Shown here: in pieces, positions 13,852-20,000 of the stretch
Layout of the letters: each line of letters opens with the position of its first letter
Position numbering within the stretch: the stretch's first letter is position 1
Translations under genes and position numbers: made by a program
Origin: Vermamoeba vermiformis
Taxonomy: Eukaryota
Assembly (NCBI GenBank): GCA_045837725.1
Contig: JBEWZL010000079.1
Span: forward strand, 60,352-80,351
Direction: 5' to 3'
DNA length: 20,000 nt
Notes under the pieces: model-generated
What the model saw: only the letters and a program-made list of their open reading frames with translations
What the model was told of the DNA's origin: nothing
Databases searched by the model: none

Positions 13852-15006
13852 ATGTTTCGCAGAAGAGTAGCCGTTCGCCCAGGTGTTCGAGGACCCGTCG
13901 TGCGTGTTCGTCGCCCTGTCAGGTACCTCCACTTAGATCCGCTTTGATCAAAACTAATATCCGTATAATAGAGTCGTAGTATCACCCTTTAGAGTTCGCC
14001 CGTTTCTCATGACTCGTGCAATCGTCAGAAGTGTTGCTGTGGTGACGCTGACTGCTGTCACGGTCAATGAATTAAACAACATGGCTATATGCAAGGGCAA
14101 GAAAGGAGAGTTTAGAGAGATGCGAGACACTGTAAGTCTTCATATTTAAGCGCTATTTGAACAAGACTATGGTCGTGTCGCTACGCGATCCATTTTTATT
14201 TTCTATTTTTGGAGCGTTTACTGATTTCTGATCTTATCGATAACTAGGACCACCCACCTTGCAAGGTGCATACCATCAAGGATTTGGACTCGTTGATTGA
14301 GTTCCAGTTGAAGGACTCGAAGGGCGCATCTGCTACTGTCTACAGCAATAGTGTAAGTAGCTTCAAACACGTGCAGTCTTAAGTATAGGAAAAATATATA
14401 TCCTCTACTAAGGGCAACAAGGCTTATAAAGATCGCAGTCCTAGAAGACATACGGCAAATCTGCGACAAAATTCGTGGCTTTAAGACTTTTCATTCTTGC
14501 GATAACCACTCCTAATCCACTTGACAATTTTATCATTCTAACATGCTGTTTAATAGTATTGCACGACATGCGGTCAATATTTCTTCTTGACTAAGCAAGA
14601 TATCAACAAGCCGATCGAGTACCAAATGACCACCACGACAACCACTGTGCACCCTACTGCAGTGCCTGTTCAACCAGCGATGCAACCACAACAACAAGCC
14701 CAGGGCTATATGCCACAGCAACAACAATTCGGAGCACTTCCGCCTCAACAATATACGCAACAAGTGGTGCCTCAACCGCAATACGGTTATCCTCCCAATA
14801 TGGCCGCAATGCCGTATCAAGGCATGCCACAACAGCAACCGCAAGGCACGCCTTATTCTCAACAGCAGCCGCAAGGCATGCCTTATTCTCAACAGCCCAA
14901 TCAACAGTTTGTTCCGGGCACGCAAGGCCAGCCCAATCCGTACATGCAATCTGGTCCTTACCAACAGCAACAACAGTACCAAGTGCATACCACTCACCAG
15001 TCTTAA
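13852..15006 (+). CDS. 261-aa protein: Arg/Val-rich N-terminus, unrecognised CxxH...CxxC domain, P/Q/G/Y-rich tail; paralogue of the next gene
   Basis: Exons 13852-13922, 13972-14131, 14248-14352 and 14557-15006 splice in frame (786 nt) with canonical GT-AG. The translation includes KGKKGEFREMRDTDHPPCKVH...YSNSYCTTCGQYFFLTKQDINKPIEYQ. Confidence 0.85.
14830..14896 (+). repeat. 30-nt tandem duplication encoding QQQPQG(T/M)PYS x2
   Basis: CAACAGCAACCGCAAGGCACGCCTTATTCT / CAACAGCAGCCGCAAGGCATGCCTTATTCT / CAACAGC. Confidence 0.85.
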
Positions 15007-15286
15007 GTAGTCCAACTTGCATGATCCTATTCTCATGGACTTTTTAATGTTACGTTTTTTTTTCGGCTGGATCGTGTAATCCACTTTTTTCGACTTTTCG
15101 ATTGTAAATAATTGTAAATAATTTACATAAAAATTTAAGCAAATCAGCGGGATTACACTTACGCGTGTATCGAACAAGTACATAAAAAGCACGTGCGTGT
15201 CATTTTTTTTTGACAGTTCAGAAACTCGATCCAATTTTTTCGCAAATTCCTGCGATTGAATAAGAACACAACAGACGCGATCAACA

Positions 15287-18190
15287 ATGAGACGAGGCGG
15301 TGGAGGAGGATTTAAAGTGACGAAGACAGTCACCACTTCGAAGCCAACAGGTCGTGTTACAACTACGACCACAAAAACGGTGACGACATCCTCGCCTGGA
15401 ATCTTTTCAAGCCCAAGCGTAGTTGTTAAATCTCCAACTATAAGCCCTACAGTTAAATTGTCTTCATCGGGCGTCAAAGTAAAAGTTAAAACACCCGTTG
15501 GAAAAGTCAAAGTAAAGAAGACTTATGTTGTCAGAAGGTAAATATTCATGATTATTGTTGATATTTATGTATTTTAAAAATATTATTCTCGATACTAATT
15601 TTAAATAGAGTTACAGTTGCTCCGCCTAGACGCAGATTTTGCTTGGCGAGGGCTTTGGTATTTACCACCGCTGCTGTGGCTTTGACAACGGTTTCTTTAG
15701 CCGAAATGGATCGTGTTGTAATTATTAAAGGAAAAAAAGGCAATTTCCGGTGCGCCAGAGATACGGTAATATTTTGTGGATCAACGGTCCTGATCGAGAT
15801 CTGACACTTTGACCGAAGGATGCTCCCACCTGTGCCGTTCATAACATTAGAGAATTGGGACATTTGGTCGAAATAAGAGTCACGGATTCCATGGGTCAAA
15901 CTGGTTCATTTTACAGCGACAGCGTAAGATCCCAAAATGTACATTTTATCAAAACTAACACGTTCATTTTAGTACTGCGTGACATGTGGCCAATATTTCA
16001 TGCTCCGCAGAGAAGAAATCAATGTGCCGATCGAATATCAGATCCAGCAACAAACGACGGTTGTGCAAGGCATGCCTCCTGACGCAATGATGGGTGGTTC
16101 TCCTATGGGCCCTCAAGCTGTTCAACAAGTCGTCACCGTTCAACAACCACCATTGCCGACAATTAGACCTGCTTGGATTAAGGACCGTGATGCTCCAAAG
16201 TACGCTACTCGCAACACCTTATCAACATCCTTTTGTAGTCACTAATAATTTTACAGTTGCATGAGATGCCGATCAGAGTTCACAGTCACATTGCGAAGAC
16301 ATCACTGCAGAAATTGCGGCAAAATCTTTTGCACGGACGTAAGTCGAGTTTGACACGTGTCACAGATAATGTTGCTAATCCTTCGCTCAGTGCTGTTTCA
16401 AGAAGATAAAATTGAAGCATTTGGGCTATGACAGCAAAGAGCTGACGTGTGTTGAGTGCCTTAGTTTCTTAGAGCAATACTGGCACAACCAACGAAACCC
16501 GCAAAAAGTCGTTGTTAACACGCCTGCCAATACGAATGTCAGCGTGCTGCCCAACCCTATGCAACAGCCTATGGGCCCACAACCGCAGTATGGTGCCTAT
16601 CCTCAACAATCCGGCGCTAACCAAGTGCCGTACTATCCGCCGAACAATGGAAGCGTGCTGCCGAACCCCTCAAATCAACAACCCATCAGTGCGCCACAAC
16701 CTCAATACGATCAATACAATAACAACAATCAAATGATGCAACAACAACAGCCATACCCACCGCAACAACAGCCGTTTGATCCGTCTGGACAACAGAAGGT
16801 CTATTACCCTTCACAATACAGTGCTCACGCTCCAATCAATCAACAACAAGCACCGCAACCCCAGCCTACTGCTCAATTCACTCAAATTTACAACAGCGAC
16901 CAGCCCGCTTATGACCCGTCACGACCTCAACAGTTCAGTGCGCACGCTCCTCCTCCAAACAACCAGACTTATACGCCCACTATTGTTCCGACACACAGCA
17001 CTCCTTCTGGTCCCAAGAAGAACCTAGACGAGTTGTTTTCATCAGTCAAAACGAACTTATCAAACGCGACGCATATGCACTCGCACTACAGACACACTGA
17101 AGCTGCTGAGGCACTTGAGAAGGCACGCACTGATTTGAACATGATGGACACTGCTCCGTTCAATCTCGTTGACAATGTCAGGTCCTTCATCAATGACATG
17201 CGTTACCAAATTGACGCCTTGGAGAAGAAGATTGCTGAGTCCATGACAACACGTGTCGTGGAGGACAAGGTCCGTGAGGCCAAGACTCATGGCACCACCG
17301 CCAAGGACATGCACTATCACAACAGATACCAAGAGGCCCTCGAAGCTGTCGCCAAGGCCCGTGAAGCCATTGCACAACTCTCGAACCCGCCTTACAGTAC
17401 TCATCCCTCCGTGTACAGCTTCCTTCCTGACTTCATTAATCAAATCAATGAGATTGAAGCCAAGTGCGGCGAGTCCTTGCAATCTCGCAAGATTGACGAG
17501 AAGATCCGTGAAGCCAGGAGTCTTGGTACAAAGGCCAAGGACATGCACTACCACAACAGATACGATGAATCCCTCGATGCTGTTGCCAAGGCCCGCGAGT
17601 GCATCGTCAACCTTCAATCAACTTACGGAGCCTTCAAGAGTGTCGTAGATTTCTTGCCTGACTTTGTGCGACAAATCAACGAAATTGAAGCTATGTGCGG
17701 TGAATCCTTGCAAGGCCGTAAGATTGACGAAAAGATCCGCGAGGCCAAGAGTCTTGGCACCAAGGCCAAGGACATGCACTTCCACTACAGATTCAACGAG
17801 TCACTTGAAGCTGTTGCCAAGGCCCGTGAATGCATTGTCAACCTTCAATCAACCTATGGTACCTTCAGGAGCGTCATTGAGTTCTTACCGGACTTTATCC
17901 GACAAATTGACGACATCGAAAGACAGTGCGGCGAATCCTTGATGAACAGAACTGTTGACGAGAAGATCCGCGAGGCCAAGTCACACGGTACTACTGCCAA
18001 AGACATGATCTATCACAACAGATACCAAGAAGCCCTCAACGCTGTTGCGAAGGCACGTGAAAGCATTCTGCAGCTCTCTGATATGCCGTTCATTAACTTC
18101 CCTGCCGTCACTTCTTTCTTGCCCGAGTTCATCACCCAGATCAACGGCTACGAACAAACTTGTGACGCTGCTTTGGGTCCCAAGTATTAA
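15287..18190 (+). CDS. 873-aa protein: K/T/V-rich N-terminus, the same CxxH...CxxC domain, FYVE zinc finger, P/Q/Y-rich linker and five 77-78-aa helical repeats
   Basis: Exons 15287-15537, 15609-15765, 15819-15923, 15973-16199, 16257-16338 and 16391-18190 give 2622 nt in frame. FYVE: WIKD...CMRC...[22 protein letters not shown]...TCVEC. Confidence 0.9.
17024..18187 (+). repeat. Five tandem coding repeats of 234/234/231/231/234 nt
   Basis: Units start at 17024, 17258, 17492, 17723 and 17954. Consensus (I/V)[25 protein letters not shown](A/S)LxAVAKARExIxxL...FLPDFIxQIxxIExxCGESL; the first unit is divergent. Confidence 0.95.
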
Positions 18191-18194
18191 ATCA

Positions 18195-18945
18195 TGTAGT
18201 TATAAATCAGTTTTTATTACTGCTCGAGCAGATTGAAATTTGTTCTCAAATCTTTTTCGTGCGCAGGCCAAGCAAACGAACATTATCGATCTGTAAGGCT
18301 AACGAAGTTCTAGGACCTAAAAAATGAAATCCTCAGCGAACAAATTAAACACCAAAATCAGTCCGCAGTGCACGGAGTGTTTGTCTTGGGGCAGGGAAAA
18401 CGCCAGTGCAGTGTCACGTCGCGCAACCACAATACGTAGGATAACCCAGCTAGAAGCACGAGTCCTCACAACAGAGCTATCAGTATGGGAGCGAGCATAC
18501 CAACGCACGGGCTGCGCGACGAGAGTTGTCAAATCCAGAATCCTGAACCACAACGCACTGCATAAAAGCAAATAGATTCGTTAAGGAGCGAAACCGCACA
18601 CGGATTTCGAGTATGGTTATACATACCAGTATCGGGTCAACGGGAAGCAGGGCTACTTCAACATCTGCAAGAAAATAAATTAGAAATTACTATTAACGTT
18701 AAAATTACAAATATTTACTAGGATACAAACGAATACACGCAAACAGAATATAATAATAATGTATTAATAATTAATTACAAATGTTTATTTCGTGGAAATT
18801 ATCAATCACGCTTTCACTTCACTTACGGGTATTTTCGCGTAAAGGAAGCAAAAATATAATTAAATATTATCTGCTTCAGTCACGTCATTTTGCTGTTGTA
18901 GTGTTTGTTGGGTTTCGAAAAACAATGAAAAAGGGTTAGGACCTA
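18195..18945 (-). ncRNA. Candidate spliced, structured non-coding (or recoded) transcript; boundaries approximate
   Basis: Canonical minus-strand introns 18665-18826 (GTAAGT...TTCTTGCAG) and 18558-18626 (GTATGT...CTTAAC...TTATGCAG). AATAAA at 18213-18218. No substantial ATG-initiated ORF in the spliced product. Several G-U-containing helices form on this strand. Confidence 0.45.
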
Positions 18946-18968
18946 CCACCTTTCAATCAGTGAATCGA

Positions 18969-20000
18969 TAGTCGTTCGACTTTCGGGTAAGGTAAATTTT
19001 ACCTTCTTTTTTATTTACCTACCTGAAAAGTCGGAAGGTAACCAAAACCAGGTTATATTTACCAAGGTAAATTGGTAAATTACCAGTGTGTAGCCTTCCT
19101 CTTACGGGCAATATGCTTGGGTGTTGAACCAATCCACAATGTTAAATCCATTGGGGCTCAAATTAATAATTAATAGTGGAGTCAATTTAATTAATAATTA
19201 CAATTCCAATTATCGGCGAAGCAACGTACGTTGCTTATCAAATACCCGTCAATTAGTAAACAACTCTTATTGAAGGTTTAATATTCCTGCAGGTCGAAAA
19301 GATCACGGCCAAGCTGAATACTAAATTTGTTGAGGCTTTACAAAATTGTTCGTTCCAATTGGCGGATTGGATTGCAAGATCAACTTGAGCAAGTAGCGCC
19401 TCGAATAAGAACTTGCTAGTGCGGTCAAAGAACAGGTTATTGTCCACAAAAAGATAATGCGAACAGAATTCGAGTTGCTGAAAAAGCTGATCGAGCGACT
19501 GAACCGCGAGGATTGCACAAATTGTAATACGATGAATAACTCCCCCACGTAAGTAATGTTTCAATAGGGCTAATTAATACTAACCGACACCACAGTGCTG
19601 TTCCCGAGGTTTCGATCGAGGAAATAAAATCGCTTCTCTAGAGAAGACCTCACTACAAGCTATCGGTTCCAAATACAAATAAATCGACAAATGCAATAGT
19701 CTAATAAATTCAAAATGGCTGAAATATTGAATATAGAGAGATTAATTGGAGAAGGGTCGCAACAGATTCAGCTTTCGAAGGCAATCCAGGACTTGTCACC
19801 TAAATAAAACCTTTTGATATACTTATCCAAGAAGCGTGGCCAATGTTACTTCTTTATAGTCAGCTTTACATCATAGATTGGCAATTGGAGGTAAATTTAC
19901 CTTAACCTAAGGGAAAGGTAAATTATCCGTTTCCTACCCGAAAAGTCGGTAGGAAAAAAAAAACCAGGTAAAATTTACCTTACCCAGAAGTCGAACGACT
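18969..20000. mobile_element. Non-autonomous DNA transposon (TIR element, ~1.03 kb); right end reaches the window edge
   Basis: 18970-19003 AGTCGTTCGACTTTCGGGTAAGGTAAATTTTACCT is the reverse complement of 19967-20000 with 2 mismatches. Both ends carry subterminal arrays of GGTAAATT(T)ACC-type palindromes and CCTACC(T/C)GAAAAGTCGG. No transposase is encoded. Confidence 0.8.
19200..19700 (+). pseudogene. Decayed, intron-containing gene fragment inside the TIR element
   Basis: Intron-like 19226-19292 (GTACGT...TTCCTGCAG) and 19549-19595 (GTAAGT...ACTAAC...CACAG). The exon has helical, coding-like pieces (VEKITAKLNTKFVEAL; ELASAVKEQVIVHKKIMRTEFELLKKLIERLNRED) broken by stops and frameshifts. Confidence 0.5.

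Follow-up and report, generated by a model that had tools for sequence, protein, structure and literature searches.

A short, twice-spliced long non-coding RNA of Vermamoeba vermiformis with a predicted Y-shaped fold in its 3' exon

Transcripts of RNA polymerase II (Pol II) carry spliceosomal GT-AG introns, and among the non-coding ones the spliced intergenic or divergent long non-coding RNAs (lincRNAs) have few exons separated by such introns, exceed 200 nt in length and lack a usable open reading frame (ORF); they lie between protein-coding genes, head-to-head with another transcript, and combine fast-evolving 5' exons with modest overall folding. Other described systems that invite comparison are the host genes of small nucleolar RNAs (snoRNAs), the spliced hosts of exonic primary microRNAs (pri-miRNAs) or other hairpin RNAs, and telomerase RNA. 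Here we analyze a 20,000-nt stretch of the V. vermiformis genome (GenBank assembly GCA_045837725.1, contig JBEWZL010000079.1, positions 60,352 to 80,351; hereinafter the window), in which an earlier note, based on reading of the raw sequence by eye, had placed a spliced, structured non-coding RNA on the minus strand at 18195-18945. This RNA shares the lincRNA features listed above, with the head-to-head placement as a probable one, and, in kind, is an ordinary spliced long non-coding RNA (lncRNA), but differs from typical lincRNAs in being short (~307 nt) and in possessing one exon with coding-like conservation and a 105-nt three-way-junction fold. For fungal lncRNAs, see PMC8113380.

Public sequencing runs were searched with 18195-18945, and four of them (X1, X2, X9 and X11) were placed on 17900-20000. 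X1 represents organism A and X2 a relative, organism B; for these two runs, the evidence consists of contigs. Together with the predicted folds, the contigs outline the following parts of the RNA, all on the minus strand.

18827-18910, minus: exon 1, 84 nt; contigs cover 18827-18893/18899; donor ACCC/GTAAGT.
18838-18884, minus: hairpin in exon 1; 5 + 8 + 5 bp, symmetric 2x2 internal loop, one bulged U, 6-nt loop.
18665-18826, minus: intron 1, 162 nt; GTAAGT...CTAAT...TTGCAG.
18627-18664, minus: exon 2, 38 nt; opens with ATG TTG AAG TAG.
18558-18626, minus: intron 2, 69 nt; GTATGT...CTTAAC...TATGCAG; spliced in X1, retained in one X2 contig.
18373-18557, minus: contig-supported exon 3, 185 nt; covered by X1 with 0 differences from the window.
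18417-18521, minus: Y-shaped domain in exon 3, 105 nt; three-way junction with a 19-bp closing stem and two arms.
18339-18359, minus: U/GU-rich stretch just past the contig ends, read from the sequence.
18195-18372, minus: remainder of exon 3 as drawn earlier, without transcript support; holds the hexamer AATAAA (18218) and the start codon (18283) of a 27-codon ORF.

The two introns predicted in the earlier note are directly seen as joints in the contigs. Position 18664 is joined to 18827, with 162 nt skipped, in two contigs from X1 (depth 38.6) and one from X2, and 18557 is joined to 18627, with 69 nt skipped, in one contig from X1 (depth 19.6); both skipped stretches are bounded by CT..AC on the plus strand, that is, by GT..AG on the minus strand. 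Intron 1 is accordingly removed in both organisms, and depth within it (bins 18681-18822) is 0 in X1 and X2 alike, as it is in 18113-18325, between the FYVE-finger gene that lies downstream and the candidate RNA. Given the zero depth in both the intron and the intergenic stretch, the X1 and X2 data behave as complementary DNA. The single X2 contig that crosses intron 2 retains it (contiguous over 18515-18664); the branch-point-like motif of this intron, CTTAAC, is, as read by eye, weaker than that of intron 1. The RNA is thus real, independently transcribed and twice spliced at canonical GT-AG sites. Two variants of exon 1 are present in X1, with 1 difference from the window in 67 letters and 8 in 73, each of them continuing into the same exon 2; the more diverged variant has three listed differences (18858, 18862 and 18865) in common with organism B. 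The two variants could be haplotypes, paralogues or the product of a mixed sample.

The supported spliced RNA extends from ~18910 to 18373 and comprises 84 + 38 + 185 = 307 nt in X1, both ends being minimum estimates, so that, judging by the contigs, the mature transcript exceeds the 200 nt that conventionally delimit lncRNAs. At the 5' side, support stops at 18893 in one X1 variant and at ~18910 in the other variant and in X2, short of the 5' end at 18945 that had been proposed; an 11-letter loose end beyond 18899 is colinear with the genome though diverged (7 of 11 letters alike, read by eye). At the 3' side, contigs stop at 18373 in X1 and at 18370 in X2 (where the contig over 18370-18521 shows 2 differences and 1 gap), with no loose end reported at 18373. 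No contig from X1 or X2 lies over 18184-18372, although contigs cannot prove absence; depth is 0 in bins 18184-18325 of both runs, and that of bin 18326-18396 is accounted for by the contigs beginning at 18370-18373. The last ~175 nt of the transcript as originally drawn, including the proposed poly(A) signal AATAAA at 18218, therefore are unsupported by any contig of these runs. The sequence suggests that the RNA ends near 18370, at a site followed by the U/GU-rich element at 18339-18359, which may act as the downstream sequence element for cleavage and polyadenylation.

The supported RNA has no usable ORF and is non-coding. As the earlier note correctly stated, the ATGs at 18888, 18664 and 18498 open only MT-stop, MLK-stop and MLAPILIALL-stop, and the longest ATG-initiated ORF in the supported RNA has 10 codons. 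One frame of exon 3 is free of stop codons for 79-87 codons, a run with a probability of ~0.06-0.07 per frame at this composition, but it contains no ATG, and the ATG just upstream is stopped by TAG after 3 codons. The codon score of this open frame, -0.118, is below those of all 81 coding windows taken from the same window (0.296 +/- 0.104, minimum 0.016) and within the range of 405 non-coding frames (-0.405 +/- 0.218). A word search of 5.8 billion proteins yielded no candidate homologue of the 79-codon frame. A HMMER search of 1.84 billion representative proteins with this frame returned three matches, all of which were rejected as artefacts: a single ~24-bit match with 29% identity is multiplied, as many as 11 times over, by the tandem repeats of proteins from unrelated families (Laminin_G_3, Fasciclin, or no Pfam family at all). 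The 2-nt indels that organism B carries in exon 2 and early in exon 3 (see below) also count on the non-coding side. By ORF length, codon score and homologue searches, the RNA therefore shows the lack of coding potential that defines lncRNAs, and a conserved ORF with a start codon, as would be found in a protein-coding mRNA, was not detected in it.

These results bear directly on the explanation that the RNA is part of a protein-coding gene, be it a 5' leader with coding exons beyond 18373, a micropeptide or non-AUG ORF, or a still-spliced remnant that has lost its start. Besides the stop-free frame of exon 3, such a gene could account for the near-coincidence of the contig ends in two runs (18373 and 18370, 3 nt apart) with a GT next in line (GTGCAC), where a graph branch at an alternative donor might produce such stops, and for the pattern of change in organism B, in which exon 2 has lost 2 nt and the beginning of exon 3 has gained 2 nt, changes that cancel each other in the spliced RNA. 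However, GTGCAC is unlike the donors used in the window (GTAAGT, GTATGT and GTACGC), no loose end is reported at 18373, and the minus strand further downstream is the antisense of the convergent FYVE-finger gene, in a region with introns of ~50-160 nt. Taken with the missing start codon, the non-coding codon score and the lack of a real homologue in two very large protein searches, this makes a coding gene quite unlikely. As a separate observation, the spliced frame from the ATG at 18888 to 18312 contains six TGA codons and no TAA or TAG over ~150 codons, and would include a transmembrane-like stretch if TGA were read through. Recoding of TGA was considered and rejected: the 12 stop-free ORFs of the window use 34 TGG (Trp) codons in 2215, and the exon-3 codon score of that frame is -0.30; the six-TGA frame is best explained by chance.

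Comparison of the X2 contigs from organism B with the window gives the following counts.

Exon-3 core: 152 nt, 2 substitutions, 1 gap letter.
Exon 1: 73 nt, 8 substitutions, 0 gap letters.
Exon 3 start, intron 2 and exon 2: 150 nt, 6 substitutions, 5 gap letters.
Upstream region, piece 1: 295 nt, 11 substitutions, 10 gap letters.
Upstream region, piece 2: 148 nt, 5 substitutions, 14 gap letters.
FYVE coding sequence: 139 nt, 4 substitutions, 0 gap letters.

To judge from these counts, the exon-3 core is as conserved between the two organisms as the nearby coding DNA. It differs from exon 1 with a Fisher p of 0.002, and from the four pooled non-coding neighbour pieces (30 substitutions and 29 gap letters in 666 nt) with a p of 0.002 when gap letters, which are not independent, are included. 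Thus, constraint is apparent in the 3' exon and not in the 5' exons, with the proviso that the numbers are small.

Within exon 3, the 105-nt stretch at 18417-18521 is predicted to adopt a Y-shaped fold on the minus strand, with 42 pairs (21 GC, 12 AU and 9 GU). The 19-bp closing stem has two bulges and includes a 12-bp helix, 18510-18521 with 18417-18428, for which the pair probabilities in the spliced RNA are 0.98-1.0; the short arm consists of 6 bp with an 8-nt loop, and the long, imperfect arm of ~17 bp. The closing helix and the many G-U pairs described in the earlier note hence are present, whereas the continuous rod that it drew is replaced by a three-way junction. The calculated energy is -46.9 kcal/mol on the minus strand (z -4.08, 0 of 200 shuffles as good) against -29.1 kcal/mol on the plus strand (z -1.71, 12 of 200 shuffles), an asymmetry of 17.8 kcal/mol. 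The exon-1 hairpin at 18838-18884, with its symmetric internal loop, is borne out as well: it has 18 pairs, two of them G-U, with -14.8 kcal/mol and z -6.75 on the minus strand, where none of 200 shuffles is as good, compared with -8.8 kcal/mol and z -3.83 for the same region on the plus strand, and pair probabilities of 0.76-0.94 in the spliced RNA. The 84-nt tile that contains it ranks 6th among 950 in an unbiased tiling of the window, in which 11 tiles reach z <= -3. The RNA is accordingly predicted to hold two local folds, both far more stable on the transcribed strand than on its complement. The third proposed helix, which would pair exon 1 with the beginning of exon 3 across both introns, fared poorly: its pair probability is 0.16-0.21, it is outside the minimum free energy (MFE) structure of the spliced RNA, and in organism B its two sides have changed, at 18900 and at 18549 (the latter with a 2-nt insertion), in ways that, as read by eye, do not compensate each other.

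The reading that we favor, at roughly even confidence, is that the locus makes a genuine lncRNA, short and spliced, in which the conserved Y-shaped domain of exon 3, with its strand-specific stability, is the only part with a plausible function. A sequence-dependent function, if there is one, would reside in this conserved 3' exon, whereas exons 1 and 2 and both introns would mainly serve the production and export of a stable Pol II transcript. The 105-nt domain may be a binding platform for a protein, that is, a scaffold of a ribonucleoprotein (RNP); here, we infer binding from stability and conservation, and it is with moderate confidence that we regard the domain as a protein-binding module acting at the RNA level.

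Its main competitor, less probable in our view but still a serious one, is that the RNA is real and spliced yet is a transcriptional by-product without sequence-specific function, made by a promoter that is shared with a plus-strand neighbour, or created beside an inverted repeat, and fires in both directions, the folds being chance inverted repeats. Two features upstream of the RNA are pertinent here.

18992-19750, plus: neighbour transcript in X1 and X2 contigs (X1 contig 18992-19545); intron 19549-19595, GTAAGT...CTAAC...CAG.
18970-19016, no strand assigned: arm of an inverted repeat, partner at 19954-20000; 47 nt, 89% complementary; ~60 nt upstream of the supported 5' end of the RNA.

The contig end at 18910 and that of the oppositely spliced transcript at 18992 are separated by an uncovered gap of 81 nt (18911-18991), so that the two transcripts probably form a divergent pair with starts ~80 nt apart; the strand of the neighbour is read from one GT..AG intron on the plus strand plus a divergent X2 joint, and 18910 and 18992 are ends of contigs. 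This arrangement, with an inverted-repeat arm alongside, fits a bidirectionally firing promoter, and the divergence of exons 1 and 2, which is as fast as that of the flanks (8 of 73; 6 plus 5 gaps in 150), is likewise compatible with a by-product. So is the low word depth, about one-tenth that of the FYVE-finger gene, although word depth is a poor measure of expression, and so are the 11 of 950 tiles that show hairpins with similar z-scores elsewhere. What a by-product does not readily explain is the coding-like conservation of the exon-3 core in organism B and the identity of all 185 nt in X1, the splicing of intron 1 in both organisms and the strong strand asymmetry of both folds, which is not expected of a palindrome at the DNA level.

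Several further points weigh against the favored reading. The spliced 307-nt RNA as a whole has a folding z of -2.54 (4 of 200 shuffles as good; +1.52 for the reverse complement), but 3 of 130 tiles of 307 nt from the window, one of which overlaps exon 1, reach z <= -2.5, so that, by this value, the RNA is among the ~3% best-scoring stretches of ordinary window sequence and not beyond them. Exon 3 taken whole has an MFE of -63 and a z of -1.76, with 7 of 200 shuffles as good (plus strand, z +0.52). What remains of the 'extensive' structure claimed earlier is the two strand-specific local elements, moderately supported. The z-scores of the Y-shaped domain are optimistic given that its boundaries were picked on the helix, and its 2-3 differences in organism B are too few for an analysis of covariation. 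When substitutions alone are counted, the exon-3 core does not differ significantly from the pooled non-coding pieces (p 0.10). Both ends of the RNA are read from the stops of de Bruijn contigs, which may be graph branches, and X1 and X2 are assigned as RNA libraries by a guess from their records. Finally, the raw, stranded-capable RNA runs X9 and X11, which carry the same species label, are silent: of ~13 million reads each, 15 and 17 were placed, mostly partial and 90-95% alike in coding parts, and none on 18184-19390. The organism behind these two runs is too diverged at the 90% cut-off, and hence they speak neither for nor against expression; the minus-strand GT..AG joints are observed in the contigs of X1 and X2.

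A search for relatives that could add sequences of the domain brought none. For syntenic relatives sought through the FYVE-finger neighbour, the peptide pattern occurs in 53 metagenome-contig stretches, of which 0 were confirmed. The two 12-nt arms of the closing helix with a gap of 66-96 nt were found at 45 loci in metagenome contigs, all of 59-75% G+C, bacterial and unrelated to this RNA. At 36 of the 45 loci, the span is the same 114 nt, with the 12-mers exactly 90 nt apart, and the interiors are mutually alike and unlike that of the window; most of these loci look like one conserved bacterial gene that shares both arm sequences by coincidence. The exons were found nowhere else in the window.

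The RNA does not belong to a known family as far as the Rfam scans, which covered unspliced DNA, can tell, in agreement with the earlier note. At gathering scores, Rfam 15 gave no match in the whole window; at E <= 10, there were only 5 matches in 17900-19300, all at about half the gathering score or less, and none in exon 3 alone (18360-18570). The TPP riboswitch (RF00059), which controls splicing in fungi and plants, is not among the matches at E <= 10 in either region. A tRNA-like origin of the Y-shaped domain was considered and discarded, with ARAGORN finding nothing over the window. The original notion of a Pol II-made, spliced, structured RNA outside known families thus holds with respect to splicing, lack of coding capacity and absence from Rfam, and is unsupported in the cross-intron helix, the rod and the poly(A) signal. 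A bolder proposal, that the domain at 18417-18521 is the core of a structured RNA family absent from Rfam 15, residing in a short spliced Pol II transcript, conserved in fold across species and acting as an RNP subunit or scaffold, we consider unlikely.

Host genes of snoRNAs of the GAS5/UHG type resemble this locus in being spliced, non-coding, host-like transcripts full of short upstream ORFs; unlike them, the RNA described here has no snoRNA found in its introns. On the minus strand, the Rfam matches of snoRNA type score far under their thresholds (snoR160, 21.5 bits versus 42; snR46, 17.3 versus 60) and lie mostly in exon 1; by eye, no C/D box pair is seen, nor a hairpin-H-hairpin-ACA layout in the predicted fold of exon 3. 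The zero depth in intron 1 adds little to this negative, as the same 0 would be expected from a poly(A)-selected library.

The stable stem-loops in the exons of a spliced non-coding RNA recall the hosts of pri-miRNAs, and exonic miRNA genes are usually found in this setting. The hairpin of exon 1 or the 19-bp closing stem could then be cut by an RNase III enzyme into miRNA-like or siRNA-like products. However, a canonical animal miRNA precursor hairpin is unbranched, with about 33 bp for Drosha and Dicer, and canonical precursors in animals and plants alike are longer than stems of 18-19 bp, whereas the exon-1 hairpin has 18 bp in 47 nt and the Y-shaped domain is branched, with two bulges in its closing stem. 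No miRNA family of Rfam matches at these elements, the only miRNA-type match being mir-247 at 18974-19036 on the plus strand with 16.2 bits (gathering score 70), and both elements are crossed intact by contigs, with a depth no different from that elsewhere in the RNA. We regard a small-RNA precursor as very unlikely.

Telomerase RNA is suggested by a 9-nt stretch at 18932-18940 on the minus strand that is complementary to 1.5 TTAGGG repeats and could serve as the template, with the Y-shaped domain as a three-way junction downstream in the same RNA. The window contains a single copy of this 9-mer, against ~0.04 occurrences expected for this permutation in 20 kb; 9 of 200 shuffles contain one. 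Nevertheless, the match was noticed post hoc, when any of six permutations would have counted, and it is scored against TTAGGG, which may not be the telomere repeat of this organism; no TTAGGG dimer is present in the window. Contig support ends 22-30 nt short of the 9-mer, which thus is outside the supported transcript, no telomerase family of Rfam matches, and the order of the arms, short first and long second, is the reverse of the P6/P6.1 order in the junctions of vertebrate and fungal telomerase RNAs. A pseudoknot/triple helix is a further hallmark of telomerase RNA; the folds predicted here are of the pseudoknot-free kind. In addition, telomerase RNAs are not known to carry two spliced introns internally. 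The probability of this explanation appears close to negligible.

The favored reading of a short lncRNA with a single candidate functional domain adds one lncRNA gene in a eukaryote that is poorly sampled, as indicated by the single homologue of the FYVE-finger neighbour, a 696-aa FYVE-domain protein with 67% identity, among 5.8 billion clustered proteins. The call of a spliced, non-coding, strand-specifically folded RNA proved largely correct, which makes it a useful check on reading of raw sequence by eye. The domain of exon 3 is the one feature worth following: if covariation held, it would be a compact, tractable structured lncRNA module outside model organisms; without covariation, the RNA would count among the numerous transcripts of eukaryotic genomes that are spliced yet non-coding.

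The window is eukaryotic and contains multi-exon genes with the introns and donors described above, (Y)AG acceptors and CTAAC or CTAAT a short distance upstream of the 3' splice site, a combination that, as an impression, looks fungus-like; Pfam domains detected elsewhere in it include RabGAP-TBC, ankyrin and EcKL-like exons. On the upstream side of the RNA, the plus-strand transcript at 18992-19750 has ORFs of only 42-47 codons and shows indel-rich divergence between the organisms, so that it is possibly non-coding or encodes a micropeptide. The inverted repeat brackets ~940 nt and is also listed as 18990-19085 and 19886-20000, with the window ending inside the second arm; palindromic GGTAAA(T)TTTACC-like motifs abound in its arms, and the 84-nt tile at 19909-19992 has the most extreme folding z-scores of the window on both strands (-4.9 and -4.3). 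From its sequence, the repeat looks like a miniature inverted-repeat transposable element (MITE) or a terminal-inverted-repeat element, or else two inverted copies of one. The convergent gene on the other side is the following.

15973-18190, plus: FYVE-finger gene, ending in a 603-codon open frame (16379-18190), directly downstream of the RNA and convergent with it.

The product of this gene has a Q/P-rich middle part, and 231-nt tandem repeats (17420-18112) encode helical units of ~77 aa, on one of which the Pfam family Mistic scores 37.7 bits (cut-off 26), probably spuriously. The C-terminal ~110 nt differ in relatives: loose ends occur at positions 18054 and 18083, and differences cluster over 18124-18146. 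The plus-strand regions 14557-15541 and 15973-16245 both open an exon with the near-identical YC(T/V)TCGQYF(F/M)L followed by Q/P-rich sequence, which suggests that 14557-15541 is a tandem paralogue that originated from local duplication of a FYVE-type gene.

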